Virus record (IMG/VR): IMGVR_UViG_2531839402_000001
DNA from: a virus
Lineage: Duplodnaviria > Heunggongvirae > Uroviricota > Caudoviricetes
DNA: 64,000 nucleotides
Reading direction: 5' to 3' (one strand)
Under the pieces are notes generated by a model. The model made no database searches. It was not told the origin of the DNA and was given only the letters and a program-made list of their open reading frames with translations. Positions 4,315 through 64,000 of the stretch are shown here, piece by piece. Position 1 is the first letter of the stretch. Each line of letters starts with the position of its first letter. Made by a program: the position numbers and the translations under genes.

Positions 4315-4705
4315 ATGATCACACCATTAAACAAATTGTTTTCTTATTGGTGTTATTTTCCCAAAGTTGAAAAGGCGTAAAAGCAGTATTCACAGGGGTT
4401 GTAGAGACGCTTAGAGACGCTAAATTGATAGTGTTCAAAGTTAATTGGTAATTCAATAAATTAAGAACGTAACCACCTTAAAATCTAAGGCTACAACCGC
4501 TGTCATTCATGCTTATTTTTTTCCTGAAGAACGCTCAGCTCCTAGATTAAGAAGTCATATTCTTGTGTAACCCGTTAAAAATGATACATTAATCTCCCCC
4601 CTCTTCGGGAAAACGGAAGAAGTTTGATGAGGATGGCATCAGGCAAATGGAACTCAAGTCTACAAAGGCCATTGCCCCCTCCTTTTAACGCTAAAAGGGT
4701 AATAC

Positions 4706-6775
4706 ATGAAAGGTAACGTTCTAGGGGATATCAGAGCAGAACACGATGCCAAAATGCTTGAAGCCTCATTCTGGCAAACAACTGATTATAAAGCTCTTTT
4801 AGAGTCGTATGATCGATGCATAGTTGTAGGTCGCAGAGGCACTGGCAAAAGTGCATTAGTGCATATGCTGTCAAAACATTGGCACGCAAAACCTAAAACG
4901 CATGTGATGACCATTAGCCCTATTGAAGAACAAATTATTGGTCTAAGAGATGTTGTCTCACTTTTCGGTGAAAATTATTTGCATATTAAAGCCGGAAGCA
5001 AACTAGCTTGGCGCTATGCGATTTATATGGAATTACTTTCCGAAATAGCAAGCCACTATAAGATGAAAAATGATCTAGACTATAAAAGTGTAGAGAAACA
5101 CTTATTATCTTGGGGAGCTAAAAGACAAAACATAAGTGGTAAAATAAGGAAAAAATTAATATCTATCCTTGATACTGGAAAAGATGTTAAACCGGCTACA
5201 AGAATATCAGATTTATCAGATAATTTTGAATTAGATTTACTAGAAGAGGTTTTATTCGAAGCTATTTCAAAATCAAACCATCAATTCGTTATTTTTGCTG
5301 ACAGGCTAGATGAAGGATACACTCCAGATGATTTAGGGGTTGCTATCGTTGACGGTTTCATTCAGTCTGTTATTGATATAAAACAAAATTTGCAAGAAAA
5401 AGTTATCGCATTTGCTTTCGTTAGAGACAATATCCATAGAGCCATATCTAAAATGGACCCTGATTTTACCAGAAACATTGAAGGACAGGTATTAAGATTA
5501 CATTGGGACGAATACAATCTCTTCAATTTGGTTTGTAACAGAATGAGAGTTGCATTTAACTCAACCATAGAAAATAACACGCGAGTTTGGAATGCGTACA
5601 CCGCTAATGAATTACAGTCAAATACGGGTTTTAAAGAAGCACTTAAGCTTACATTATATAGACCGAGAGATATCTTGGTATTATTAAATGATGCTTTCCT
5701 GAGGGCCGCAACTCACGATCGCACAAAAATAATAATTGATGACATAAAAGCCACTGCAAACACAATATCTCAAAACAGGCTTAACGACTTACTAAAAGAA
5801 TATGAAAATGTATTCCCTGCACTAGATATATTTACATCGCTTTTTGGCAATAAAAGACCAGATTTTACCATCGCGGAAGCCTCTGAAATAATAAGCCAAG
5901 CATTTGATATAAAAGAAGTTAATGACAAAATGAAATTACAGGACATCCTTTTGTTTGAAGGTCCTGTTCAGGTGATCCAACGTTTGTATAGTGTTGGTTT
6001 TTTTGGATTATACAATCAGCAGTCCTCATCATATGTGTTTTGTCATGATGGAAAAGAACCAGAAAAAGAGTTTACACCAGGCTCCAAGCTTCTGCTACAT
6101 CCTTGCTATTGGCTTGCATTAAGTGTACATGAGTCAGACATTACTCCTGAAACAGCTGACGATATCCACGATGAATACGATATCGAAGTTAGCTCCGTAT
6201 CAGAAGAACAACGAAAACAACGGATCGGTGCTCTTCTTCAAGAATTAAATAATATCCCAGAAGGTAAGGAAGGGGCTGTTGATTTTGAAGCATGGGCTTT
6301 GAAAGCTATTAAAATATTGTTTGCGACGAATTTGACCAATATTGAACTCCATTCAAACAAAAATGGTCTACAGCAGCGAGACATTATTGCAACAAACCTT
6401 GCCGACACACCTGTCTGGAAAAGGATATTGACTGATTACCAATCTCGACAAGTTGTATTCGAAATCAAAAACTACAAAACGTTAGGTGCTGATGAATATA
6501 GACAAGTAAATTCATATTTATTTAAAGATTATGGTAGGCTAGCTTTCATTATAAATAGGGATCACTCTGAAAACTTAGAAAAACATAAAGAGCTAATCTG
6601 GGTAAAAGAACTTTATGACAACCATAACAAATTGGTTATAAAGTTGCCTTCAAAATTTCTTGAGCGACATCTTTCTAAAATGCGTAGCCCTCAAAAACAT
6701 GATGAAGTTAACAAACAGCTAAGCAAGTTGCTTGATCTATATATTAGAAGCTATTTAAATAACAAGTGTAAGTAA
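4706..6775 (+). CDS. STAND/ORC-like P-loop ATPase fused to a C-terminal PD-(D/E)xK-like nuclease; candidate single-gene defence protein
   Basis: Walker A VGRRGTGKSAL near the N-terminus; Walker B FVIFADRLDEG. C-terminal ~150 aa contain QRDIIATN...VVFEIKNYK (D...ExK restriction-endonuclease-like core). Visibly AT-rich codon usage unlike the flanking genes; own promoter region and own terminator. Confidence 0.55.
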   Translation: MKGNVLGDIRAEHDAKMLEASFWQTTDYKALLESYDRCIVVGRRGTGKSALVHMLSKHWHAKPKTHVMTISPIEEQIIGLRDVVSLFGENYLHIKAGSKLAWRYAIYMELLSEIASHYKMKNDLDYKSVEKHLLSWGAKRQNISGKIRKKLISILDTGKDVKPATRISDLSDNFELDLLEEVLFEAISKSNHQFVIFADRLDEGYTPDDLGVAIVDGFIQSVIDIKQNLQEKVIAFAFVRDNIHRAISKMDPDFTRNIEGQVLRLHWDEYNLFNLVCNRMRVAFNSTIENNTRVWNAYTANELQSNTGFKEALKLTLYRPRDILVLLNDAFLRAATHDRTKIIIDDIKATANTISQNRLNDLLKEYENVFPALDIFTSLFGNKRPDFTIAEASEIISQAFDIKEVNDKMKLQDILLFEGPVQVIQRLYSVGFFGLYNQQSSSYVFCHDGKEPEKEFTPGSKLLLHPCYWLALSVHESDITPETADDIHDEYDIEVSSVSEEQRKQRIGALLQELNNIPEGKEGAVDFEAWALKAIKILFATNLTNIELHSNKNGLQQRDIIATNLADTPVWKRILTDYQSRQVVFEIKNYKTLGADEYRQVNSYLFKDYGRLAFIINRDHSENLEKHKELIWVKELYDNHNKLVIKLPSKFLERHLSKMRSPQKHDEVNKQLSKLLDLYIRSYLNNKCK

Positions 6776-6781
6776 ATCACA

Positions 6782-6818
6782 ACGCAGGCTATAATATCTT
6801 ATTAGCCTGCGTTTTTAT
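6782..6818 (+). terminator. Rho-independent terminator after the ATPase-nuclease gene
   Basis: acgcaggct...agcctgcgt stem followed by TTTTAT. Confidence 0.55.
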
Positions 6819-6943
6819 CGAAAGTTTTACGAAGATGAAAACTCAATAAAAAACAAATTACAAAGTCCAGCCGTCATAAGTAAAATACAATATTCAATCC
6901 ATATTATTAGGGTATTGAGGAAGCTCCATTTCATGCAATAGCC

Positions 6944-9017: not shown

Positions 9018-9219
9018 GATAGTTTTCCTTACTGTGGTTCATAAAATCGATTCTAGAGCGTCTGGAGAGGGACTCCAGTGGGTTCTGGAGGTGTAAAACG
9101 GTCTGGGAGTTGTTTGGAAATCACGTCTTAAAAAGCCTGCGTCTGTATATATTAATAATTAGTACTTAGTTATTTATATATACGGAAGCAGGTTCTCAAA
9201 CTAACTCCCAGACTGGTGT

Positions 9220-10841: not shown

Positions 10842-11042
10842 TTTTAACTCCTTATGTTTTCGTTGGTGCGTTTCCGCGTTTGTGTTGAGCGTATTCTGGC
10901 AAAACCTATCAGGTAGAAAACGAATAAATTCAGGTAATTACAATAAATTACCTCACGCTTTTGAAGATTTTTTTTCATCCAAACCTCATATGATTTCCAA
11001 ATGTAAAATCAGCCGCTATGATGAGAGGATTCTGCTAAAGGA

Positions 11043-12158
11043 GTGATTAATGTGAACATTGATGTAAATGCCATTTTGAACGATGCAGTAAAAGATATGC
11101 CCATAGCTAACATCATCGTGATAGGAAAGACTGGTGTAGGAAAAAGTTCTCTCATTAATAGTGTATTTCGTGGAGACTTTGCGAGAACTGGGGTAGGCCG
11201 CCCTGTAACAGAAAATATAAAAGTAATTAAGAAAGAAGGCGTCCCATTACAAATCATTGATACTCAGGGACTGGAAGTCGCGGATTACGATAAAACCAGA
11301 TTAAACATTGAAAATTACATAAACGAACATAACAATAGTGAAGAATCAGAGAATTACGTCCATCTCGCTTGGCTATGTATTAATGACACCGGTCAACGTT
11401 ATGAAAAAGCTGAACTAAACATAGCCAAGTTTTTGATAAGTAAAGGAATACCGGTTATAGTAGTACTAACAAAAACAAACAGCTTCAAAAACAATGAATT
11501 TGCGAAAGAAGTTGAGATTGCATTTAAAAACTATAGCCATGCAGTCTGTCTGACTCGTGCGATTGAAGAAACGATTTATGATGAAGATGAACCAGATGAA
11601 ATCATAGGAAAAAGAAAGGTTAGAGGCATAGATGATTTAATCCAAACATCGTATGAGGTTATTCCAGAAGCACAAAAAAAGGCATTTTCCAATGCTCTTT
11701 CAATTAAGAACAAAAAAGCATTGGATATAAAAAAAGAGCAAGCTAGTAAAGAGGTTATTGCCGCAACAGTCCTCGCAGGTGCGGCCGCAGCAACCCCAGT
11801 TCCATTTTCAGATGCATTTACCTTAGTGCCAATTCAAGTCACAATGATTGCAAAAATCAGTTATACCTTTGGAATGGATGTATCTAAAGCGGCATTAACA
11901 ACAATGGTAACGTCTTTAATAGGTGCTGGTGGTGCAGTTTTTTTAGGACGAACAATTGTCACAGGGCTATTAAAGATGATACCTGGTGTAGGAAGCCTCG
12001 TTGGAGGGGCGATTTCTGCAACAACGGCAAGTGCAATCACAAAAGTCCTGGGTGATACATACGTTCTGGTTCTGTACAAGCTCGCAACAGAGTCTAAAAC
12101 CGGAGAAATTGATTTTGAAATGGCAGCCAAGTTACTGAAGGCAAAAGTTTCATTTTAA
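11043..12158 (+). CDS. Ras-like (MMR_HSR1-type) GTPase with C-terminal DUF697-like glycine/alanine-rich membrane-associated domain
   Basis: G1 GKTGVGKSS, G3 DTQGL, G4 LTKTN. C-terminal 130 aa are hydrophobic and Gly/Ala-rich (AGAAAATPVPF...IGAGGAVFLGRTIV...GVGSLVGGAISA). AT-rich, and the only plus-strand gene in a minus-strand module. Confidence 0.6.
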   Translation: MINVNIDVNAILNDAVKDMPIANIIVIGKTGVGKSSLINSVFRGDFARTGVGRPVTENIKVIKKEGVPLQIIDTQGLEVADYDKTRLNIENYINEHNNSEESENYVHLAWLCINDTGQRYEKAELNIAKFLISKGIPVIVVLTKTNSFKNNEFAKEVEIAFKNYSHAVCLTRAIEETIYDEDEPDEIIGKRKVRGIDDLIQTSYEVIPEAQKKAFSNALSIKNKKALDIKKEQASKEVIAATVLAGAAAATPVPFSDAFTLVPIQVTMIAKISYTFGMDVSKAALTTMVTSLIGAGGAVFLGRTIVTGLLKMIPGVGSLVGGAISATTASAITKVLGDTYVLVLYKLATESKTGEIDFEMAAKLLKAKVSF

Positions 12159-12162
12159 AAAG

Positions 12163-12190
12163 TTAAGCGGTGCAATTTATTGCACCGCTT
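12163..12190. terminator. Bidirectional rho-independent terminator
   Basis: aagcggtgcaatttattgcaccgctt perfect hairpin flanked by A/T runs, between convergent genes. Confidence 0.55.
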
Positions 12191-12196
12191 ATTAAA

Positions 12197-12739
12197 TTAA
12201 AAATCGAAAAAACCATATTTTTCCCGAGCTTTGAAAAAACATTGCATCATCAGCTCAGTATCGTAGAGGGCACTGTGGGCCTTCTCACGGTCGTAAGTGA
12301 AGCCAAGTGAGAACGCCAGCTCTTCTAGGCGTGGACGCTTCCCATCTTCGGTAGCCCACAGCCCATCTAGCATAGTGTCAACCAGAGGGATATCCGGCAA
12401 TTTCACCCCATAGCTGCCGAACTCGTGGCGAATGAACGGAAGGTCAAAAGCCTCTCCGTTATGGGCAACTAACGCGCTACATGCACCCATATATGCAGCA
12501 ATCTTGCCTGCGTGGTCAGCCAGTAGCGGTTCCGTCGCCAGATCTTCCAGTGAAATGCCATGCACCGCCTGCGCCTTCGGATCGATACTGCGACGCGGGT
12601 TGAAGCGCATCTCAAGGCTGTCGATGTGCTTCTGGGTTTCCAGTTCATAACGGGTTATCGCGATTTCGATAATTTTGTGGCCGGATGTGAAGTCCAGCCC
12701 TGTGGACTCAATATCGACGCCACCGACAATCGTGGTCAT
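12197..12739 (-). CDS. DnaQ-like 3'-5' exonuclease (DEDDh)
   Basis: Exo I VDIESTGLD, Exo II HNGEAFDLPF, Exo III HSALYDTE. Confidence 0.75.
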   Translation of the reverse strand: MTTIVGGVDIESTGLDFTSGHKIIEIAITRYELETQKHIDSLEMRFNPRRSIDPKAQAVHGISLEDLATEPLLADHAGKIAAYMGACSALVAHNGEAFDLPFIRHEFGSYGVKLPDIPLVDTMLDGLWATEDGKRPRLEELAFSLGFTYDREKAHSALYDTELMMQCFFKAREKYGFFDF

Positions 12740-43245: not shown

Positions 43246-45618
43246 TTACCCAAGAATGATACGAGATAGTTCTGTGACGACTGACGGCCCTAACTCTTCT
43301 ACGCTGTTTACCAGTGCGTAATTTTTGTAGTAACGCCGTGGTGCGTCGGTCAGAACGCCGATAGCCATCAAATCGATGTCACTCAACGTCTCAATTTCTT
43401 TGATGACGGTTCGCAAATGCTGATGGAACCCGTCGCCTGCAGCACATGGCGCCCCGTCGCTCATAACCAGCATGATCTTCTTGTCCTCCATTCGCCCTGC
43501 AAACAGAGTCGCCAGCTGCGCGACGCTCTCACCATCGACGTTATTGAGCAGGGGGAATGTCTCACACACGCAGCCCATGCGGGCGCGGATCTCTGGAGAG
43601 TTGGCTTTCTCATTCCAGTTTTTGATAATGGGCAGCATTAGCGCCTCGAAACGAGTAAACCCGCGCTTCGACATGGTTTCATAATCTGGGCTACCAAACG
43701 TGGTAAAGCCGGTGATGATGTTAGGCACATTGATACGATCCAGAGCATCCGCAATGGTGTAGGCGCTTGCGATTGCCAGCTGAATCTTCCTGCCGCCCAT
43801 TGAGCCGGACAAGTCGATCACCTGCTGGACGCACGCGTTCACCGCTCTGTGGTCTTCTTTCTTGCGGAATACGCGGTCGTCGTTCATTGCCAGACGATAC
43901 AGGTTCGCGCCATGTATCCGCCCACGTCTCTGGCCTGGGATAAACTGAACTCGGTTGCGGCTGGCGATAGCTCGCTCCAGGTCTTTGGCCAGAGTCGAAG
44001 AAACGCCTGCTGACAGATGTTTTTCGATTTTCAGTTCAAAGAGCTTTCTGCCTTCCGGAACCATGCGGTAGCGATCGACCGGTGAGTGCATCGGGATTGC
44101 GCCGAACGTCTTTCTGGTGCGCTTTACATGCTCTTCAGCCTCATCAATCAACCCGATAAAGTCGTATGAACGATCGTATGGGCGATACTCAGAAAGTGAG
44201 GTGCTCATAAGCTCTTTGCTGATGGTGGCCGACAGTGCGTCTTCGGTCATTTCGCCTGTTCCGTCTTCCATCTCGTCGAGCGCCTTGAGTGCGTCCTCCA
44301 GAGTCATTTCATCCGGAGCAGGAACAAAGCCTGACTCACTGTCTTCAGGCGCTTCCGCAGCATCCTCATTTTCTTTACCTTCGCCGTCTGTTTGATCGGC
44401 GGCATCATCTTCCTCTTCGCCTTCTCCTTCCGACTCCCCGTGACCGGCATCGGAGTCTTCGCCGTCATCACTATCACTATCCCCATCGCCAGCGGCGCCA
44501 GAGCCATAACCATCGGAGTCATCGGCGTCTTCGCGAATGCCATCACCAGGCGTTGGAGAGCCAGTGTCATCACTACCACCTTCGTCATCAGAATCACCTG
44601 ATTCCATGCCGGCATCATCGGATTCTGAGGTGTCTCCTGATTCCTCTTCGCCTGCTTCTGTATATTTACTTTCTGTATCACTAATTTCTTTATCTTCTGT
44701 AGGTAAGTTCTTATCTACTGATTCAGGCAAATCAGAATCCCCAGACTCTTCCTCTTCTGAGGCATCATCTTCTTGCTCTTCCTTGTCGTCGTCTTCGCCT
44801 TTGGTACGCTTTGGTGCTGATTCACTATGAGTCGGTTCGTCACCGGCTTCTGGGGTTTCCTCTGACTCATCCTCACTCTTCGACGGCTTCCTAGCAGACG
44901 ATTTAAGCTCTGGTAATTTGCCCTCTGGCTTGTCTTTCATATCCTGCATGATTTGGGCGATAGCAGCTGCTACCTTCACGCAGTCTTCTGTGTTCGACAT
45001 ATTGCGAACGGCCACGTCGATACCATGCTCTTTGAGCAAGGCCACAGGCTTCTCGATGAGGTGCCAGTGTTCTTCCATAAAGTCGATGAAAGGGCTTTGG
45101 CCATCCCAGGCGCGAACGACCGGGCAAAGGAAGAATTTCAGGAACAATTCACGCTGGTTGCCGTGGCAGATTGAAACCGCCTCTGAAACTTTGCCCTTGA
45201 AGTATTTGTCGATCACCACGTTCTGTGTGGCCAGCAAATTGCGACGAGTTCCGTTGAATACCTGTCCCATTCTGCGTTCAATAAAAACGTCTTCCAGCGC
45301 GTTCCAAAGCCCGGTAGACGGAGCCTTTCCTTTCTCGCGCATCTTCATTGCGACTTTCGGATCAGTAAAGAGGATATGGGCTACCTCATGGTCGAGAAAA
45401 CCACGTACTGCGTTCATGAGGGTTGGTGACGCGTCGTCCGGTATAGATGGGATGTTTACCAGCACTGGTTCGCCGCGCCGGTTGTAGCGGACATATGCTT
45501 CATTACCTCGCTCTGCAACAGGTATCTGTTTGCCTGATAGCATCGCTACAACTCGTTTTACGCAGTCGCGAAAGTCCTGTACCTCTTTCAGCACAGATCT
45601 GGTCATGGCTTTGGACAT
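43246..45618 (-). CDS. CobT-like vWA-domain protein with long acidic low-complexity insert
   Basis: C-terminal vWA/MIDAS motif (VIDLSGSMGG); D/E/S-rich central region. ATG at 45618 with AAGGAAA RBS preferred. Confidence 0.6.
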   Translation of the reverse strand: MSKAMTRSVLKEVQDFRDCVKRVVAMLSGKQIPVAERGNEAYVRYNRRGEPVLVNIPSIPDDASPTLMNAVRGFLDHEVAHILFTDPKVAMKMREKGKAPSTGLWNALEDVFIERRMGQVFNGTRRNLLATQNVVIDKYFKGKVSEAVSICHGNQRELFLKFFLCPVVRAWDGQSPFIDFMEEHWHLIEKPVALLKEHGIDVAVRNMSNTEDCVKVAAAIAQIMQDMKDKPEGKLPELKSSARKPSKSEDESEETPEAGDEPTHSESAPKRTKGEDDDKEEQEDDASEEEESGDSDLPESVDKNLPTEDKEISDTESKYTEAGEEESGDTSESDDAGMESGDSDDEGGSDDTGSPTPGDGIREDADDSDGYGSGAAGDGDSDSDDGEDSDAGHGESEGEGEEEDDAADQTDGEGKENEDAAEAPEDSESGFVPAPDEMTLEDALKALDEMEDGTGEMTEDALSATISKELMSTSLSEYRPYDRSYDFIGLIDEAEEHVKRTRKTFGAIPMHSPVDRYRMVPEGRKLFELKIEKHLSAGVSSTLAKDLERAIASRNRVQFIPGQRRGRIHGANLYRLAMNDDRVFRKKEDHRAVNACVQQVIDLSGSMGGRKIQLAIASAYTIADALDRINVPNIITGFTTFGSPDYETMSKRGFTRFEALMLPIIKNWNEKANSPEIRARMGCVCETFPLLNNVDGESVAQLATLFAGRMEDKKIMLVMSDGAPCAAGDGFHQHLRTVIKEIETLSDIDLMAIGVLTDAPRRYYKNYALVNSVEELGPSVVTELSRIILG

Positions 45619-50739: not shown

Positions 50740-52131
50740 TTATGCTTCATGTTGCTTTTTGAGATCGCTTCTAGCATAGCTCCACTCAATAATGTTGTCG
50801 GGTCGTTGCTGATCGAAAAGGATTCGGGATTCAATACCATTACCTAAAAAGCTGGTATGCCCATCTACGTAAGAAGCTATCCCTTGCGAACCAACATGAA
50901 GAATATTTTCTAATGGTTGTTTTGTTCTCGCCGTATTGCTAAGGAGAAATAAACCTGGGTACGCTTTGTTAGCACGGTGAAAAAAAAGTTCATTGTCAAA
51001 ACACATGACGATGATTATTTGTCCCGACATGAGATCGGAGAGCATTTCAGTTGGCAGATGCAAACTCATAAATGGCCGAGACAAAGGGTCAAAGAATGAA
51101 TCGTTTATATTCACAACAGGGCTTTTTATATCGAGGCCATCCATCCATCCATTGAAGGCAACAAAACCCATTTTAGAATCACGGTACATACCTAAGAACA
51201 AACATTCATCAATAGTATCAATTGCCCAATTTTTTCCTCCGCGAATAATCTCCCACATTTTAACTAAACGGTGGGTATAAAACTCAGATGGATGGTCTAT
51301 CTCATCGATTTTAACTTTAGATTGATGAAGATTGTCAAAGCCCTCGCCAGTATTAATCGCCTCCAGCACATTCATACCACGAACGATTTGCCTTTTTATG
51401 CGATTAAATTGCTTAACATCATTTTCAGGCATATTGCTAATGAAGTTTTCTTCAAAGTTCGGACACTCTGAGATAACAGAAAATTCGGCAGCTTCATAAA
51501 GCTCATTATTCTTTTTGCCTGTTTTAACTTCCACGAGTTGAAAGCCATCCAGTGGATTAAAGGTGACTAAATCCCCCACATGAACAAATGTACTCATGTC
51601 AGAGACAATCGCTACGGCGTGTTTGTCCTGATTGATAAGATCGGCTGCGACCATAGAATCAATTATGTTATCTTCTGATAGATTGTCGTTGCCTGTATTA
51701 ATAGGTAAACGCCGCAAACTCGAGTGATCTTCATCAAGTATGCTCCAAATTAGTGAGTCAATACAACGGCGAAGAATAAGAATTTCAAATTTTTTTAAAT
51801 TTATTTCATCAATACACTTTTCTTTCTTTTCTTTATCCTTGTTTCGATGATGCTCTTTTTTTTCAACTTCCAATTTTTTTATATCTCGCAACCGAAAAAT
51901 AATCTCAAAAGATATAAGTTTCTGTGCGTCTTTCCAATTTTTGAGACAGATTTCATACTCTTCAAGAAAAATTTCATCATTGGAAGGTTGTTCTTGAATT
52001 GGGTCTTCACCCCTTATCATTTTGGCAAGTGAATGCAGTTGAAATACAAAGTGAGGTGATAAAATTGTCCAAAATTTTCTAAACGGTTTGTATTTTTCAA
52101 TAAAAGTTGATTCGTCAGTATAATTTATCAT
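50740..52131 (-). CDS. Hypothetical 463-aa protein; possible PD-(D/E)xK-like core; partner of the AbiH-like gene
   Basis: AT-rich codon usage. Central VHVGDLVTF...FQLVEVKTGK resembles a D...ExK nuclease core (weak). Lys/Glu-rich helical N-terminal region. Confidence 0.45.
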   Translation of the reverse strand: MINYTDESTFIEKYKPFRKFWTILSPHFVFQLHSLAKMIRGEDPIQEQPSNDEIFLEEYEICLKNWKDAQKLISFEIIFRLRDIKKLEVEKKEHHRNKDKEKKEKCIDEINLKKFEILILRRCIDSLIWSILDEDHSSLRRLPINTGNDNLSEDNIIDSMVAADLINQDKHAVAIVSDMSTFVHVGDLVTFNPLDGFQLVEVKTGKKNNELYEAAEFSVISECPNFEENFISNMPENDVKQFNRIKRQIVRGMNVLEAINTGEGFDNLHQSKVKIDEIDHPSEFYTHRLVKMWEIIRGGKNWAIDTIDECLFLGMYRDSKMGFVAFNGWMDGLDIKSPVVNINDSFFDPLSRPFMSLHLPTEMLSDLMSGQIIIVMCFDNELFFHRANKAYPGLFLLSNTARTKQPLENILHVGSQGIASYVDGHTSFLGNGIESRILFDQQRPDNIIEWSYARSDLKKQHEA

Positions 52132-52220: not shown

Positions 52221-53093
52221 TCAGATATCTTCATACTGCACGTAAGAAATATTTGAGTCTCTGACATCATAATCTTCTAAGCTGCCTGACTTTTCCTCAC
52301 CTCTATATAAAGCAACTATCCATCGAGCATTTTCTTGGATGCTTTTATTTATTTCAGCGAAGTATTCACCGTCAACTTCGGCAAGCGAATGGCCTAAAAC
52401 AATGACCTCATCCACATTTTTAAGCGACGAGAAAAAAACGCTCTCTTCTTTAATTATGTTTTCGCTGGGCTTGAATGTATTACCGAAGTATTCGTCTATG
52501 CTGTCGTATGCTTCTGCTATTCTTGTATCTTGATCCGGCCCTATATATGGATTTAGTGACTTTTCAACCCTAAAACTGTGACCTAGTATGAGATCGTCAT
52601 CGTAAATACAATTGCCGTGAATATGCATGATTTGCGCGTCTGGAACGGCATAGATCTGCTGCAAGGTATTGGTATAATTAAATGAAAAATAGAGGCTTTC
52701 TCTTGATATGGGCGGGATGTATTGCTCAGAATTGCAAGCATCGGTTATGTTAATCCCTTTAACCCAATCAGCGAATTGCTCCTTCAAGCGAGCTGACAGC
52801 ATCCGTGTGATTTTATCTACTTCATATTGGTAATCGTGATGATAGGCATCGCTCCAATCATCGGTATTGTACGAAGCCAAAAACATCTCACTGTTTTGAA
52901 GGATAAGCTCATAATCAATTGCGCCTAAAGCACTTTCTAACTCGTTCCATTCGTCTCCAGCAGGCAGGTATTCTTCTATCGCGTCATATAGTTCTTGGTC
53001 ATGTTTTGCTACATACGACTTAAAGTGCTTGTATCCTGTTGGCAAGCCATGTCGAATATCAAATCCGTTTCCTATTATGTAAAGCCTCATCGT
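52221..53093 (-). CDS. AbiH-family abortive-infection-like protein
   Basis: N-terminal MRLYIIGNGFDIRHGLPTGYKHF matches the AbiH signature (LxIIGNGFDxxHGLxTxY). AT-rich. The start is chosen at this motif rather than the longer track ORF. Confidence 0.55.
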   Translation of the reverse strand, partial: TMRLYIIGNGFDIRHGLPTGYKHFKSYVAKHDQELYDAIEEYLPAGDEWNELESALGAIDYELILQNSEMFLASYNTDDWSDAYHHDYQYEVDKITRMLSARLKEQFADWVKGINITDACNSEQYIPPISRESLYFSFNYTNTLQQIYAVPDAQIMHIHGNCIYDDDLILGHSFRVEKSLNPYIGPDQDTRIAEAYDSIDEYFGNTFKPSENIIKEESVFFSSLKNVDEVIVLGHSLAEVDGEYFAEINKSIQENARWIVALYRGEEKSGSLEDYDVRDSNISYVQYEDI

Positions 53094-53385
53094 TTTTCCC
53101 TTAGTCGAATGGTAAAAAGATACTAACCGACTAAAGAAAAACATAAAACCAAAAGTCGCTATCAAATACAACCACGAATTTTCAATCTGACTACCAACCT
53201 CCATAGACGCAAAAAAGGGGCCGAAGCCCCTTTGGAATTTGCGCTAAAAAGTGTTGATACAATGCTAGGAATCAATGGTTAAGAACGTCTGCCGTGTCTA
53301 TCACAGCGCTGAACGGTCTGGCGACATTTGCGGAGTCTTTCCGTTCGGACGGTGGTGGCGAACTCCAAACCGTTCAGCGCTGTGT

Positions 53386-59206: not shown

Positions 59207-59352
59207 TTACCGCAGTTTTTAAAAGGCAATATCTTGATAAGCCTCGTTTTTTGAATACCATAAAGGCTCATGTGTTTTTCCTTTTGTGATTAAACAAAAG
59301 GTAATTTTTAAGGGCGTGGGGCTGTTATCCGTCTTTGCCCCACGCCTATTTT

Positions 59353-60693
59353 TTAAAGAACTTCCATGATCCGCTCGATGAAGCGCATCTGTTCGAGGTT
59401 CTGCTTAACGCGAATACTCACCCCGCCCTTCTGGTTACGAGAACCAGCAAAATAGAGACGTGCTTCGCCTTTGGCTTCTTCCTCCTCAGTCTTGTTGATA
59501 GTGATGACTAAGTCGGCGATACGGACTTTTTCGATATTGTCCGCGGCGTGCATCATGGTGGCCACTTCGGATGAGCCACCTTCACGATTGGTCTGGGATG
59601 CCGTGATTCCTGCAACGTTGTGCTTATCGTAGAGAGCACGCAGATCGGTGTAGATAGAACGGATGTTCGCCCGGTCGTCACGGAGGTCGTAACTGGCACG
59701 CATCAAATCCGCATAGTCGACCACCACCATATCCGGGATCATGCCATTCGCTTTCATGCTATTGAGCATACGATCCAAATCTGCAGGCGACATGCTTCCT
59801 GACGGGCGCTCAACCACCCAGAGATTCCCCACCCCTTTCGTCGCGCCAAGCTCCGCGAGTTTCCGGTGAACGTCGTCACGCTGCTCTACCAGCTTTGACA
59901 TCTCCGTTTCAGACAGCCGCGCATCGAAGCGATCGGAGAGAATCGAGGTATGCACTTCGAGAGAAAGATACAAAACGTTGTAGCCGGCCAGCGTTGCGTT
60001 AATGGAGAACTCCCCCATCGCTGTCGATTTACCTGATTTCGCAAACCCCATGAAGAGCACCATCTCACGTTTCGCCCAACCTTTTTGATAGAGCATACGA
60101 TCCAGCAGCGGAAGACCGGTGGTGATGCTGTTCGGTACGTAATCATCAGAGGCTTCATATTCACGGGCCTTGTAACGTTCCGCTGCAGAGGCGTAATAGT
60201 CATAAATGCCCGTCGCTTCGTTAGAACCGATCTGCTGCACTTTGGCCATGATGGCCATCGCTCCCTGGAAGTCACCCTTCTCCTTCATCTCGGCCGCTTT
60301 AATCAACGCATCGTCGAACGCTACACTTTTAGCGAACGTCGCGACCTGGTCGACCATGTAAGCCGTATCAGAGAGTTTTTCCGAGAGCACCCGCTTAAAC
60401 GCCGCCACAACGTCCGGGAACATCTCTTCTCTGATCGTCTTATCGCGTTTAGCACGCTTCAACATATCGAGGATGGCCGCCGATGAAGGCGCGCTCTTAT
60501 ACATTCTGAAATAGCCCGATACCATGTTCACCAGTATGGCGTTCGCCGCATTGGAGAATTGGTTGGGGGCAACCAGATCGCCGGCACGAGTCAGAAACTC
60601 ATGATCGCGGCAAAAATACGCCGCCAGACGATTCTGGAAGTCGTCGTCGAACTCTTCAGACAACCCTCGTCCCGTGTGGCAAAGTTCGGTCAT
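59353..60693 (-). CDS. DnaB-like replicative DNA helicase
   Basis: RecA-fold Walker A FMGFAKSGKST, Walker B VVVDYADLM, N-terminal helical domain; sits beside the primase. Confidence 0.7.
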   Translation of the reverse strand: MTELCHTGRGLSEEFDDDFQNRLAAYFCRDHEFLTRAGDLVAPNQFSNAANAILVNMVSGYFRMYKSAPSSAAILDMLKRAKRDKTIREEMFPDVVAAFKRVLSEKLSDTAYMVDQVATFAKSVAFDDALIKAAEMKEKGDFQGAMAIMAKVQQIGSNEATGIYDYYASAAERYKAREYEASDDYVPNSITTGLPLLDRMLYQKGWAKREMVLFMGFAKSGKSTAMGEFSINATLAGYNVLYLSLEVHTSILSDRFDARLSETEMSKLVEQRDDVHRKLAELGATKGVGNLWVVERPSGSMSPADLDRMLNSMKANGMIPDMVVVDYADLMRASYDLRDDRANIRSIYTDLRALYDKHNVAGITASQTNREGGSSEVATMMHAADNIEKVRIADLVITINKTEEEEAKGEARLYFAGSRNQKGGVSIRVKQNLEQMRFIERIMEVL

Positions 60694-60757
60694 GTGTTTG
60701 TTATCCTTTGATGCTTAAACAAGTTGTTTTCTAATCGTAAAAATATGGAGCAGGCAA

Positions 60758-61483
60758 TCAACACAGTCGCCGTGCTTCTTCCAGTTCTTCCGGGTAATGG
60801 GCATAGATAACGCGCTCGGGCACCAGCTCCATCAACCAGACAGCAGAGAAGATGGTGCGGATACGCTTATCACGGGTGATGTGCTTCAAACGCTCCAGAA
60901 CCCATTCAAAGTAACGTTCCTGAATTGGGTCATGCTGCATGTCTCCTAAGTGCTTAAAACTCACTACAGAGTCATCCAGACGCGTTCCCGCACGATTGGC
61001 GAGTTTGCTTTCGAAGATCTCAATCAGTTCTGGCTGCCAGAGATGCTGAGGGCGAGGTAATTTGTCCCAGAGCCGGCGCGCAGCTGCAGAGAGAACAGTT
61101 GATATAAAATAGTCATAAGAGCAGCAATATCTATCTGCAAACTGGCGAGCTTTCCAAAGGGATGTTTTGTTCACCGCCGATAGCTCTTGGTAAGGCAAGC
61201 GTTTCAGGCCAGTACTAAATGGCGCCGTCTCGAAATGCTCGCGGCCATGAGACAGCATGATCTGTGAGTATGCACGCTTATAGGCTTCCGTGAACAGGCA
61301 GGTTGCCATCAGCGGGTGCATGTCGCGATAGTCAAACCACTTCGTATCAAAGAGCTCAGCCTCCCCCTGGCATCGTGAAAGACCGATGTTTTCCGCAACC
61401 CACTTGTCCATGGCCGCTGTGTCCCACTCCATCATGAAGTCGTACTGGCCGTTGTTTATGGTGTCAAAAAAGATCTGGCTCAT
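60758..61483 (-). CDS. Hypothetical protein
   Basis: 241-aa ORF. Confidence 0.45.
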   Translation of the reverse strand: MSQIFFDTINNGQYDFMMEWDTAAMDKWVAENIGLSRCQGEAELFDTKWFDYRDMHPLMATCLFTEAYKRAYSQIMLSHGREHFETAPFSTGLKRLPYQELSAVNKTSLWKARQFADRYCCSYDYFISTVLSAAARRLWDKLPRPQHLWQPELIEIFESKLANRAGTRLDDSVVSFKHLGDMQHDPIQERYFEWVLERLKHITRDKRIRTIFSAVWLMELVPERVIYAHYPEELEEARRLC

Positions 61484-61655
61484 GCTCTCACCGATAGGTA
61501 ACTACTTACTTATTGCTTGGTAGATCATAGCGACTGGGAAGCAGTTTGGAAAGAGGAATCAGAAGGGTGTGTACTGGAGTGTTCTTGTATCAAAGACCTG
61601 CTTCTGTATATTATTATACTTCCAGTATTAAAATTACTACAGAAGCAGGCAAATA

Positions 61656-63374
61656 TTAATCAATATCTATCTTTAACAATCTTTCAACTCTTATTTTATT
61701 CAATTGCGAAGTTCTTGCCACTCTTTTAATTGCAGCTATTGCTTTATCAGTTATTTGAGTCTGGCCAGGTATAGGATCAACGTGGTCGTCAAATTTAAGA
61801 AGGCCATGCCTAATCTTATCCAAAACATCTTCGTTACAGGTAACAATCCAGTTGTAATAATCATCTTCACTGTATGCATTTAAAGCATCAATATGTAATG
61901 AAGAGTAATTATTACTGCTCGATAACCGGCCAAGCAACTCATCTAAATCATATTCGGCCTTTCTTATTTGATTTAATTTATTATTAATCAATTCATATAA
62001 GCCTTTATGCTCAATGGTGCTGTTTATCAATAAATTATATTCTTTATTAAGTGAACCTCTACTAATAAGATCATCAACATATTGAGTAATATAACTATCG
62101 CAGTTAACGCCTAACTCCTCTAGAATAATAAAAATCGAGGAAACCTTGCTAAGAGGTATTCTCGACCTATACTCCTCTATTGCTCCTTTCAATGCATCAA
62201 CAAAATCATCTTGGTTTGTATTGAAAGAATCTCTAAAAACACTCCATATTTCATCTAACTTTCTATTTATCGCTATATCTTCATAATCTTTATTTTTAGC
62301 CTTCACCGCACTTTCAAAACTGAAGTTGGAAGGCAAATATCCATGCTTAAAGTAATAATCAATCCCGTAATCAAATAAATTATCAGAATTTGTAAATGAC
62401 ATATCTAACTGCTCTATGAATTTTTCAGTGGCTGACATTTCGTCATCATTAGTATGATAACTATCAGCCATTGCTCTGGGTTGTATTTTTTTGAAAAATT
62501 CATCATAGGGCAACTCATCAGCCCCTGAGTAAAATACATATGCAAAAAGAACAACTCTGAAAGTAAAATCTTTCCGCACTTCCCTGCACGCTGTTGTGAA
62601 TTCAGACTCATATGCGTAAAGAGTCTTTTTTATTTTATTCAATATTCTAATATTTTTTAAATTTAAAGCATCTGCCGCACTTTTTATAAATTCAAAATTC
62701 GGATCGTTATGTGGAAATATTTTTCTGACATTATCAATGACGTCAGGTTTATACATAATGTCACGATCGACAATTTTTTCTCGATATTCTATAAATTGTC
62801 TTTCTTCATCATTCTTAGTTAAGTTATTTTCATTGTAAATCAATATTATCTTACATGCTTTTGATCTTGCAAGGTCATCAACTAACCCCATGAAGTCTTT
62901 TATCTCTAAAGAGCTACCTTTTCTCTCAAGATCGTCAAAACAAATTAAATATTTACTTACATAATTATAACCATCAAAAATTGTAAATTCGGAGGATTTA
63001 AGGCCAAACCCGCTTATCCCTATGCTAAAGTTATTAAAGATCTTTTTACTTACTTTGTTATACCTTACGCACTTATATACTCCCGAGAAAAACCTCTCCA
63101 TCATTTGTTGTTTTTTCTCTAGTAAATCCTCTCTATAAAGTTTTTGATTAAGCGGTATAGTGGAAGGGAATAGTTTTTTCTTAATTTCTTCAATAGAATT
63201 AAGACCAAATAGAGAAACATATGAATATGCAATCTGATCAATTTCTCTTTTATTTCTTTTACCTTCGTAGTAACGGTTCCAAAAATGTGTTTTCCCTACT
63301 CCCCATTCACCTTTAATTACTGCAACCCTGTCATCAGAAGCCAAAAATTCATCTAAAATTTTTGTTATGGACAT
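61656..63374 (-). CDS. KAP-family P-loop NTPase
   Basis: KAP-type Walker A KGEWGVGKTHFW; Walker B FDDLERKG region. AT-rich. ATG at 63374 with AGGAG RBS chosen. Confidence 0.55.
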   Translation of the reverse strand: MSITKILDEFLASDDRVAVIKGEWGVGKTHFWNRYYEGKRNKREIDQIAYSYVSLFGLNSIEEIKKKLFPSTIPLNQKLYREDLLEKKQQMMERFFSGVYKCVRYNKVSKKIFNNFSIGISGFGLKSSEFTIFDGYNYVSKYLICFDDLERKGSSLEIKDFMGLVDDLARSKACKIILIYNENNLTKNDEERQFIEYREKIVDRDIMYKPDVIDNVRKIFPHNDPNFEFIKSAADALNLKNIRILNKIKKTLYAYESEFTTACREVRKDFTFRVVLFAYVFYSGADELPYDEFFKKIQPRAMADSYHTNDDEMSATEKFIEQLDMSFTNSDNLFDYGIDYYFKHGYLPSNFSFESAVKAKNKDYEDIAINRKLDEIWSVFRDSFNTNQDDFVDALKGAIEEYRSRIPLSKVSSIFIILEELGVNCDSYITQYVDDLISRGSLNKEYNLLINSTIEHKGLYELINNKLNQIRKAEYDLDELLGRLSSSNNYSSLHIDALNAYSEDDYYNWIVTCNEDVLDKIRHGLLKFDDHVDPIPGQTQITDKAIAAIKRVARTSQLNKIRVERLLKIDID

Positions 63375-63415
63375 AATTAATGCTCCTAAGAAAAAGGCGC
63401 CTAACGCGCCTTCAA

Positions 63416-63778
63416 TCAACTCTTTTTCATCAGCTCACGCTTTATTTCGTCAGTACGCATCGTCACATCAGCAGCGGTGATCGCCTCGTTCATCTTTACG
63501 ATGTCCTCAATTTCCTGCGGGGACTTCTCTGCCAGATGGAAAATGGCTGCTCGTATCACATCAGAACGGGTGAACTTCTCGAAGCGAGGGATGAACTTCA
63601 TCATCTCCAGTAATTCGAAATACTCGTCTTCAAGCGACATCGTGCGGCTTTTGATTTTCTCTTTACCACGTGTTGGACGGCCTTGTGGACGGACAGGCTG
63701 GCGCATCGGTGTGCTGCTTTTAGGCGCAGCAGCTTCCGCAGCCGGACGTTTTGCCAGATCACCCATTTTCATGGACAT
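63416..63778 (-). CDS. Small partition/centromere-binding protein (ParG/RHH-like)
   Basis: Immediately downstream of parA; basic disordered N-terminus plus short helical C-terminus, as in type Ib partition RHH adaptors. Confidence 0.45.
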   Translation of the reverse strand: MSMKMGDLAKRPAAEAAAPKSSTPMRQPVRPQGRPTRGKEKIKSRTMSLEDEYFELLEMMKFIPRFEKFTRSDVIRAAIFHLAEKSPQEIEDIVKMNEAITAADVTMRTDEIKRELMKKS

Positions 63779-63780
63779 TA

Positions 63781-64000
63781 TTCACCCTCCAAGGTCATTA
63801 CGTATTCTACTAATGCTTCAATCTCGGCCTCAGCCTTTTTGTCGCGTTCGGCTCCGGTCATCTCAAAGATTGAACGGCCCGCCTCTTCGGCATCGTCATA
63901 GACGTTGCGGTTGTAAAGGTTCACCGGTGCCGCCTCGATACCGAAGGTTTCGACAATTTCTTTTGCAGCGATAATGCGCGCCGCCTGTGAAGGCAGAGAC
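63781..64000 (-). CDS. parA: ParA/SopA-family partition ATPase (3' part only; continues beyond window)
   Basis: C-terminal translation ...NLYNRNVYDDAEEAGRSIFEMTGAERDKKAEAEIEALVEYV typical of the ParA C-terminal helix. Confidence 0.6.

Follow-up and report, generated by a model that had tools for sequence, protein, structure and literature searches.

A KAP-family NTPase gene in an exchangeable slot of an SSU5-like Klebsiella phage-plasmid: a candidate single-gene anti-phage defence

PifA of the F plasmid, a namesake of the KAP family, excludes phage T7 by abortive infection, in which the membrane is depolarised and nucleotides leak out; it reportedly has no transmembrane (TM) helices. QatA of the qatABCD system, a nucleoside triphosphatase (NTPase) of the KAP family, forms multimers and is able to bind DNA. 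EF_KAP and three metagenomic relatives, each a single-gene KAP NTPase with a C-terminal region of unknown function, provide up to 6-log protection against phages in Enterococcus faecalis (PMC13552941). Protection of the EF_KAP type requires the Walker B motif and the C-terminal region, the mode of EF_KAP is not abortive infection, and a small serine recombinase served as the bait marker in the study of these single-gene systems (PMC13552941). Here we analyse a KAP-family gene on a 64,000-nucleotide (nt) stretch of viral DNA (IMG/VR record IMGVR_UViG_2531839402_000001; the window hereafter) that is, as judged from sequence identity, part of an SSU5-like Klebsiella phage-plasmid. About 300 Klebsiella plasmids with a length of about 110 kb, and Klebsiella phage-plasmids such as pJN2-26, match its region 59300-64000 at 97-99% identity; the Salmonella phage SSU5 does so at about 82%. 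As the slot of this gene holds other anti-phage genes, some of them proven, in sister plasmids, the gene is most likely a candidate member of the recently validated single-gene class of phage defences and not a plasmid-stability gene. An initial annotation of this DNA had held that KAP NTPases essentially lack a characterised mechanism; this is partly outdated by the work on PifA (known for decades), QatA, EF_KAP and the relatives of the latter. The gene, its parts and the slot in which it lies are as follows.

61656..63374, minus strand: KAP-family P-loop NTPase gene, 572 amino acids (aa), single-gene cargo (open reading frame (ORF), Pfam, PADLOC, PHROG 4740 at E=5e-162, GC content, AlphaFold model)
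63288..63311, minus strand: Walker A codons, GEWGVGKT, aa 22-29; G22, W24, G25, G27, K28 and T29 invariant in 49 homologues
62922..62942, minus strand: Walker B codons, CFDDLER, aa 145-151; C145, D147 and E150 invariant, D148 and R151 at least 90% conserved
62961..63146, minus strand: variable insert between Walker A and B, aa 77-138; a long soluble helix and a disordered loop in the model
61659..62699, minus strand: C-terminal all-alpha region, aa 226-572, solenoid/helical-repeat-like, putative sensor
63383..63387, minus strand: Shine-Dalgarno motif AGGAG, 8 nt 5' of the KAP ATG (sequence)
61650..63415, no strand: variable slot (cassette), in which homology is lost among 11 related loci

The ORF with its Walker A motif, placed just past a pair of parA- and parG-like genes, was found as initially described. 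It starts with the ATG at 63374, and in near-identical plasmids RefSeq lists this 572-aa product as well. A TTG-extended version of 587 aa (to 63419) is unlikely because the extension would traverse the hairpin that follows the parG-like stop codon. Assignment to the KAP family, likewise proposed beforehand, is borne out by a match to Pfam KAP_NTPase (PF07693; aa 3-223, E=1e-6, 28.7 bits where the gathering cut-off is 20), by the DDLER Walker B motif and by the stretch inserted between the two Walker motifs. Diverged alleles found on two related plasmids reach 33.4 and 39.1 bits, most homologues carry a precomputed PF07693 annotation, and a search of NCBIfam returned no family for the window protein. 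Residues 21-32 read KGEWGVGKTHFW, and the Walker B segment LICFDDLER (aa 143-151) is of the KAP type and lines up with VVMDDLDR of PifA in hhalign. Besides the nine invariant Walker residues listed above, N181, E199, D203, P210, N241, R243, G345 and R562 are invariant across the alignment of 49 homologues. Since its motif residues do not vary in this alignment, the NTPase looks catalytically intact.

The AlphaFold model of the protein (predicted local distance difference test (pLDDT) score 86.5) consists of a P-loop alpha/beta core followed by the all-alpha region; a single gene encodes a KAP NTPase and a large C-terminal region without a known domain. The insert lies where TM helices are usually found in KAP proteins, in which such helices are common and not universal. 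The suggestion that TM helices might be inserted in the P-loop domain was checked and did not hold for the window protein: no TM helix was found by hydropathy (the top 19-residue Kyte-Doolittle window scores 1.15), and in the model the insert is soluble, with a helix at residues 77-115 and pLDDT values below 50 at residues 115-131. The nearest folds to the NTPase core are the DNA-loading AAA+ proteins Cdc6/Orc1, TnsC and MuB, a likeness confined to the generic AAA+ core at 10-14% identity, and weak structural matches were obtained with NOD2, NLRs, Avs4 and RdrA. The protein is a soluble one in which, according to the model, an AAA+/STAND-like NTPase core is joined to an all-alpha solenoid.

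When the C-terminal half was searched against 1.84 billion representative proteins, 466 clusters were retrieved, with proteins of 535-600 aa in which this region occupies a constant position; because of this constancy we regard the proteins as one coherent two-part family. A shuffled C-terminal module was considered and ruled out, the region being fused to the KAP core at one fixed position in all 466 clusters. Among phage-plasmids, the KAP alleles stand at 94, 54, 44 and 39% identity; the backbones that carry them show DNA identities of 97% or 82%. This divergence is distributed by region, with 18-56% identity in the insert, 20-51% at aa 301-500 and 52-70% in the NTPase core. A conserved core combined with a hypervariable insert and solenoid is the sequence pattern expected of recognition surfaces in an arms race.

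The genomic setting of the gene was defined by a junction alignment of 11 loci (the window, SSU5, pJN2-26, and plasmids of Klebsiella, Salmonella and Escherichia coli). Homology ends on the left directly after a conserved inverted repeat (about 61650) and begins again on the right with the parG-like stop at 63416. The AT-rich island that had been delimited at 61520-63420 is real as cargo, and its limits are corrected to run from about 61650 to the parG-like stop, the spacer on its left being conserved backbone. The conspicuous AT-richness of the KAP ORF was confirmed, with a GC content of 0.313 (31.3% against about 50% in the backbone), compared with 0.491 for the window, 0.50-0.51 for the two flanking genes and 0.39 for the spacer at 61484-61655; in all of its versions the slot has a lower GC content than its own flanks (0.31-0.46 against 0.47-0.52). 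KAP and at least seven other cassette types occupy the slot; they are mutually exclusive, occur in either orientation and have sharp junctions. Counted as PLSDB records that cover at least 80% of each cassette, with the KAP alleles counted by tblastn, they are distributed as listed.

135 records: 255-aa GIY-YIG protein, PADLOC PD-T4-3 (E=1.3e-23), mostly E. coli
124 records: DUF2971 protein, minus orientation, PADLOC PDC-S31 (E down to 7e-34)
108 records: KAP alleles, all
95 records: 352-aa ORF, function unassigned
42 records: pair of membrane proteins of 136 and 255 aa
35 records: DUF2971 protein, plus orientation
no count: DUF2971 protein with two small membrane proteins (SSU5 and pJN2-26)
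no count: pair of proteins of 136 and 214 aa

Of the 108 KAP records, about 100 seem to be plasmids of the SSU5 type; a few records (e.g., H128 and H139) gave fragmented matches. The initial annotation had set against its proposal the case of a core gene with host-like composition, present throughout the related phage-plasmids; what we found is a gene carried by 61 of the 728 plasmid records that match the flanks, with other cassettes in its place elsewhere. The KAP gene is accessory, exchangeable cargo and not part of the core. PD-T4-3 is a single-gene defence that has been validated experimentally (10.1101/2024.12.20.629700). Because conserved flanks and sharp edges enclose exchangeable AT-rich cargo that includes this validated system, the par/rep slot of SSU5-like phage-plasmids behaves, at the level of sequence, as a defence hotspot. 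In the searchable literature we found no description of a hotspot bordered by the parG-like gene and the PHROG-2500/helicase/primase module, and none of a soluble KAP-solenoid subfamily of about 570 aa acting in defence. In loci of related plasmids, the slot holds pairs of predicted membrane proteins (136 and 214 aa at L004 2572-3616, 136 and 255 aa at L005 2568-3738; hydropathy above 2) or a soluble 352-aa ORF that has no Pfam or PADLOC match (L006 2678-3736). We consider the pairs and the 352-aa ORF to be candidates for new defence or exclusion functions.

Among defence databases, the best match of the window protein is PADLOC PDC-S49 (E=1.7e-24, 3.4e-17 and 5.1e-12), with partial cover of the models (positions 9-210, 26-78 and 5-390 of 619-629); two diverged alleles match it as well (E=5.7e-25 and 1.5e-21). 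This match, the presence of PD-T4-3 and PDC-S31 in the same slot, an AbiH island elsewhere in the window and the published KAP defences lead us to favour an anti-phage function. We judge it rather likely, well short of certain, that the KAP gene encodes a single-protein defence against phages or other mobile genetic elements, serving as a sensor and switch in a defence hotspot. The initial annotation had left the choice between anti-phage cargo and an addiction-like stability factor. The former is favoured as a prediction by the PDC-S49 match, the slot partners, AbiH and the single-gene precedents (PMC13552941), whereas addiction found no support for a gene that is solitary, separated from its neighbour by a hairpin and dispensable in most relatives.

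A mechanism along the following lines can be envisaged. A trigger derived from the phage would bind to the variable insert, the solenoid or both and would switch the NTPase, probably by oligomerisation, and the switched NTPase would then block the infection. For the final step we prefer an NTP-dependent action on phage nucleoprotein complexes without death of the cell, because EF_KAP protects in a non-abortive manner, DNA binding is reported for QatA, and the folds closest to the core belong to AAA+ proteins that load DNA; the main alternative would be a PifA-like collapse of energy brought about via a host partner. A bolder proposal combines two parts. The soluble KAP-solenoid proteins of about 570 aa would form an effector-less class of antiviral sensors that arrest the phage while sparing the cell, by capturing or remodelling a phage nucleoprotein complex in an NTP-driven manner, with specificity provided by the hypervariable insert and solenoid. 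The par/rep slot would be an undescribed hotspot whose 352-aa ORF and 136 + 214-aa and 136 + 255-aa pairs would represent novel defences that circulate among clinical Klebsiella, E. coli, Shigella and Salmonella. We put this combination forward tentatively and think it, on balance, doubtful.

Expression of the gene has to be considered in view of a hairpin that separates the KAP ribosome-binding site from the parG-like stop.

63388..63413, minus strand: GC-rich hairpin with U-tract, GAAGGCGC-GUUAG-GCGCCUUU-UUCUU, terminator- or attenuator-like, part of the cassette (centroid -13.5 kcal/mol)

Other GC hairpins occupy this place in the remaining KAP alleles and in most of the other cassettes. 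A consensus scan of the minus strand from this KAP-proximal hairpin to 64000 found no sigma-70-like promoter; because no such site was found upstream, we propose that the KAP gene would be expressed at a low level via read-through from the par operon.

Several considerations weigh against a defence function. For the window protein and for the subfamily of about 570 aa, a defence role is a computational prediction. PDC-S49 is itself a computational candidate whose models are matched over the N-terminal 210-390 of about 620 positions, and it adds no experimental support because we found no paper that names it in the searchable literature. Surveys of SSU5 phage-plasmids based on DefenseFinder list PD-T4-3, AbiH and others and have flagged neither the KAP gene nor the hotspot. 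The argument from location is suggestive, and several of the slot cassettes have no assigned function. Neither sequence nor structure comparisons revealed a recognisable effector domain or enzyme fold in the window protein, which makes the killing or blocking step a guess. Read-through expression is presumed from the negative promoter scan, and a gene this AT-rich might be silenced by H-NS.

Three other explanations compete with anti-phage defence. The KAP gene directly follows the parA/parG-like pair, with which it is probably co-transcribed by read-through, and pifA of F is likewise found in a maintenance region; one could therefore picture a factor that stabilises the phage-plasmid in an addiction-like manner or that excludes rival plasmids and phage-plasmids instead of lytic phages. 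The SSU5-like Klebsiella plasmid p2 of Kp1604 (CP085480), tested as a whole plasmid, lowered the efficiency of plating of three lytic phages by 10-100-fold, which speaks for defence, and it reduced transformation as well, in keeping with exclusion of rival elements (PMC8969562). Yet the gene is solitary and has no antitoxin-like partner, a terminator-like hairpin separates it from the parG-like gene, it can be swapped with a validated anti-phage nuclease, and its distant homologues are chromosomal and apart from any par genes. Moreover, maintenance does not need the KAP gene because most relatives with identical par and rep genes are without it, and we consider a maintenance or competition factor unlikely. 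The replacement of the gene by unrelated cassettes, including a GIY-YIG nuclease, in sister elements that share the replication genes speaks also against a merely polymorphic life-cycle gene of the phage-plasmid itself, be it a counter-defence factor or an accessory replication or packaging ATPase. Such a role would fit the structural kinship of the NTPase core with Cdc6/Orc1, TnsC and MuB, the abutting helicase-primase module and the occurrence of proteins with the KAP N-domain in temperate phages of Bacillus, Burkholderia and Campylobacter. The initiator matches are, however, limited to the generic AAA+ core noted above, and full-length homologues are solitary chromosomal genes beside toxin-antitoxin (TA) modules and recombinases, which makes this explanation quite unlikely.

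The composition of the gene, with 31% GC in an element of about 50%, the missing promoter-like site of its own and the hairpin ahead of it would be compatible with a silent or neutral hitch-hiker, that is, a foreign AT-rich gene that is repressed, confers no phenotype in Klebsiella and is retained by linkage. The reading frame is intact, however, and the catalytic residues are invariant across the 49 homologues; alleles of at least 90% protein identity occur in 62 plasmid records, and an allele of some kind in about 100 plasmids of the SSU5 type. The alleles diverge in a domain-specific manner, which implies selection. We regard a neutral passenger as very improbable, and defence against phages or other mobile elements as the best account of the gene.

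Both sides of the slot consist of backbone.

60758..61483, minus strand: left flanking backbone gene, 241 aa, PHROG 2500, function unassigned, first in the helicase-primase replication module; conserved across all relatives
63416..63778, minus strand: right flanking backbone gene, parG-like small protein, 120 aa, PHROG 5111 (PHROG match)
63778..64000, minus strand: 3' end of the upstream ATPase gene, cut by the end of the window; annotated as ParA-like partition protein or AAA family ATPase in SSU5, pJN2-26 and plasmids
61585..61649, minus strand: conserved backbone hairpin with a T-rich 3' tail, at the left slot edge (dG -22.8 kcal/mol, z=-4.25 against shuffles)
61524..61552, minus strand: weak promoter-like site TTTCCA-17-TATGAT upstream of the phrog_2500, helicase and primase genes (consensus scan), within the conserved spacer

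Read along the minus strand, the 3' end of the ParA-like ATPase gene is followed by the parG-like gene, the KAP ORF, a 172-nt spacer, the 241-aa PHROG 2500 gene, a DnaB-like helicase gene and a primase gene. The ATG of the parG-like gene overlaps the stop of the ATPase gene as TAATG; this overlap, the small size of the product and a sub-threshold match of the ribbon-helix-helix type are the basis of the parG label, which is putative. A TA module was considered as well and rejected: the slot contains one ORF, and the 172-nt and 41-nt spacers hold hairpins and no ORFs.

The initial annotation had reported an AT-rich spacer with a palindrome copy as a part of the island. The palindrome is real: arms CCTGCTTCTGTA and TACAGAAGCAGG at 61597-61608 and 61638-61649 form a perfect 12-nt repeat around a 29-nt AT-rich loop, and a further copy lies at 9136-9192. 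It belongs, however, to the backbone, as palindrome and spacer are kept in all 11 related loci irrespective of the cargo. Five matches to the arms were observed in the window where 0.37 would be expected by chance. A half-site at 44651-44662 (one exact arm without a partner, amid repeats of the TCT/TCC/GAT type) is most likely due to chance, as are three looser regex matches. The copy at 9136-9192 is a member of a dispersed family of hairpins of about 55 nt, CCTGCKTCYGTATA...TATACRGAAGCAGG, with a similar AT-rich loop and T-rich tails, located just past gene ends (others at L020 15270-15326 and 38533-38587 and at L021 13305-13361). Copies are found 3' of the Dam methylase gene in the window, pJN2-26 and SSU5, and an extra one precedes the terminase region of pJN2-26; in every copy the T-rich tail is oriented along the upstream gene. 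Where slot copies have C/A mismatches in the DNA, the minus-strand RNA has G.U pairs instead, and changes in the arms are compensatory or compatible with G.U pairing. On account of the position at gene ends, the T-rich tails and this pattern of changes in the arms, the palindrome is best read as an intrinsic-terminator-like element that would end the par/cassette transcription unit before the promoter-like site of the replication genes (61524-61552), a member of a family shared by SSU5-like elements. A role as cassette recombination site or part of the island was ruled out because the element is conserved backbone and its second copy lies within a conserved block.

The KAP slot is not the only AT-rich segment of the window. 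An island with a GC content of 0.36-0.38 encodes an AbiH abortive-infection protein (52221-53204, minus strand; Pfam 2.2e-69, PADLOC 1.6e-28) next to a 463-aa ORF without a family match (50740-52131, minus strand), and represents by these matches a second defence island on the same element. Two further blocks are absent from SSU5 and pJN2-26. That at 4405-6918 (GC 0.34-0.36) contains an ORF at 4706-6775 (plus strand) for a 689-aa AAA_16/ORC-CDC6-like ATPase with a PADLOC PDC-M36A match (1e-13), and is probably another variable cargo slot; that at 10941-12205 (GC 0.38) contains an ORF at 11043-12158 (plus strand) for a 371-aa GTPase (MMR_HSR1 + DUF697) with a weak PADLOC LeoBC match (1.5e-5). 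The segment 6919-20000, with genes for nucleotide metabolism, Dam and RNase H, is 97.6-98% identical to SSU5 and only about 78% to pJN2-26, whereas for the par/rep segment 59300-64000 the identity is about 97% with pJN2-26 and 82% with SSU5. These opposite patterns of identity therefore point to recent recombination between lineages.

SSU5-like phage-plasmids are common in clinical Klebsiella pneumoniae, E. coli, Shigella sonnei and Salmonella Typhi. If the slot is a defence hotspot, the allele that it holds (KAP, PD-T4-3, DUF2971 and so on) would aid the prediction of susceptibility to therapeutic phages, and the slot would yield a short list of compact, naturally swappable cassettes in which to look for new defence functions. 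The four KAP alleles on near-isogenic backbones offer a natural series for mapping how the trigger is recognised by a KAP NTPase.

Distant full-length homologues (25-32% identity) are solitary chromosomal genes in mobile or TA-rich contexts, away from par genes. In Pseudomonas and Neopusillimonas, such a homologue is found in mobile islands just 3' of a tyrosine recombinase of the Phage_integrase family of about 206-208 aa (L012 7580-8200; L015 8999-9625 / L016 697-1323), and in one genome it is found beside a Phd/YefM-type pair between housekeeping genes. The tyrosine recombinase and the KAP homologue may form a mobile unit linked to the recombinase, much as a serine recombinase marks other KAP defences. 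A plasmid of E. faecalis encodes a homologue that hhalign aligns over aa 8-483 with a probability of 99.2%, and genes for a small serine recombinase, MazF and Fic are found nearby. We do not equate this homologue with the published EF_KAP; it has no TM helix, and EF_KAP is described with two.

Compared with the EF_KAP class, the window protein shares the single-gene make-up, an N-terminal KAP NTPase followed by a region of about 320-350 aa without a known domain, and location on a mobile element, and its E. faecalis plasmid relative has the small serine recombinase nearby. It differs in that both it and this relative lack the two TM helices described for EF_KAP, and in that no serine recombinase adjoins the KAP gene of the window. 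With PifA it has in common that it is plasmid-borne and soluble (PifA hydropathy at most 1.27), that the non-catalytic C-terminal part is large, that maintenance genes are close by and that the Walker B motif is DDL(D/E)R. On the F plasmid, pifC-pifA lies within a few kb of ccdAB, repE and sopAB (L018 12446-15761), and the founding plasmid KAP defence gene therefore also occupies a replicon maintenance region. In contrast, the two proteins align over 69 columns only (probability 88%, E=3e-6), PifA has 741 aa, an unrelated C-terminus and pifC upstream, and its Pfam score is 148 bits against 29 for the window protein. Orthology with PifA was rejected: only aa 139-208, the Walker B segment, align, and the upstream gene is parG-like and not pifC. 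A QatA-like or multi-gene system was likewise set aside, there being no Qat model among the PADLOC matches at E<=1 and the neighbours being par and replication genes.

PDC-S49 resembles the window protein in being a single gene of a similar length class, and differs in that the C-terminal half of the model is unmatched. The STAND/Avs-type NTPases and RdrA of RADAR have the same succession of an AAA+/STAND-like core and a fast-diverging alpha-helical repeat region; unlike them, the window protein has no N-terminal effector domain, and its KAP-type motifs and insert differ. Sequence profiles did not place it in the STAND families, and one allele gave a sub-threshold nSTAND3 match. Defence by a single KAP gene, PifA, and the carriage of defence genes by phage-plasmids are all known already, and the KAP gene described here is a sound lead that will not surprise a specialist. 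For the slot as a whole, the comparison is with the hotspots of P2 and P4 and with the defence genes of P1-like and SSU5-like phage-plasmids. Like such mobile-element defence hotspots, it combines conserved flanks, sharp junctions and mutually exclusive AT-rich cassettes with a validated system, PD-T4-3, among its cargo.

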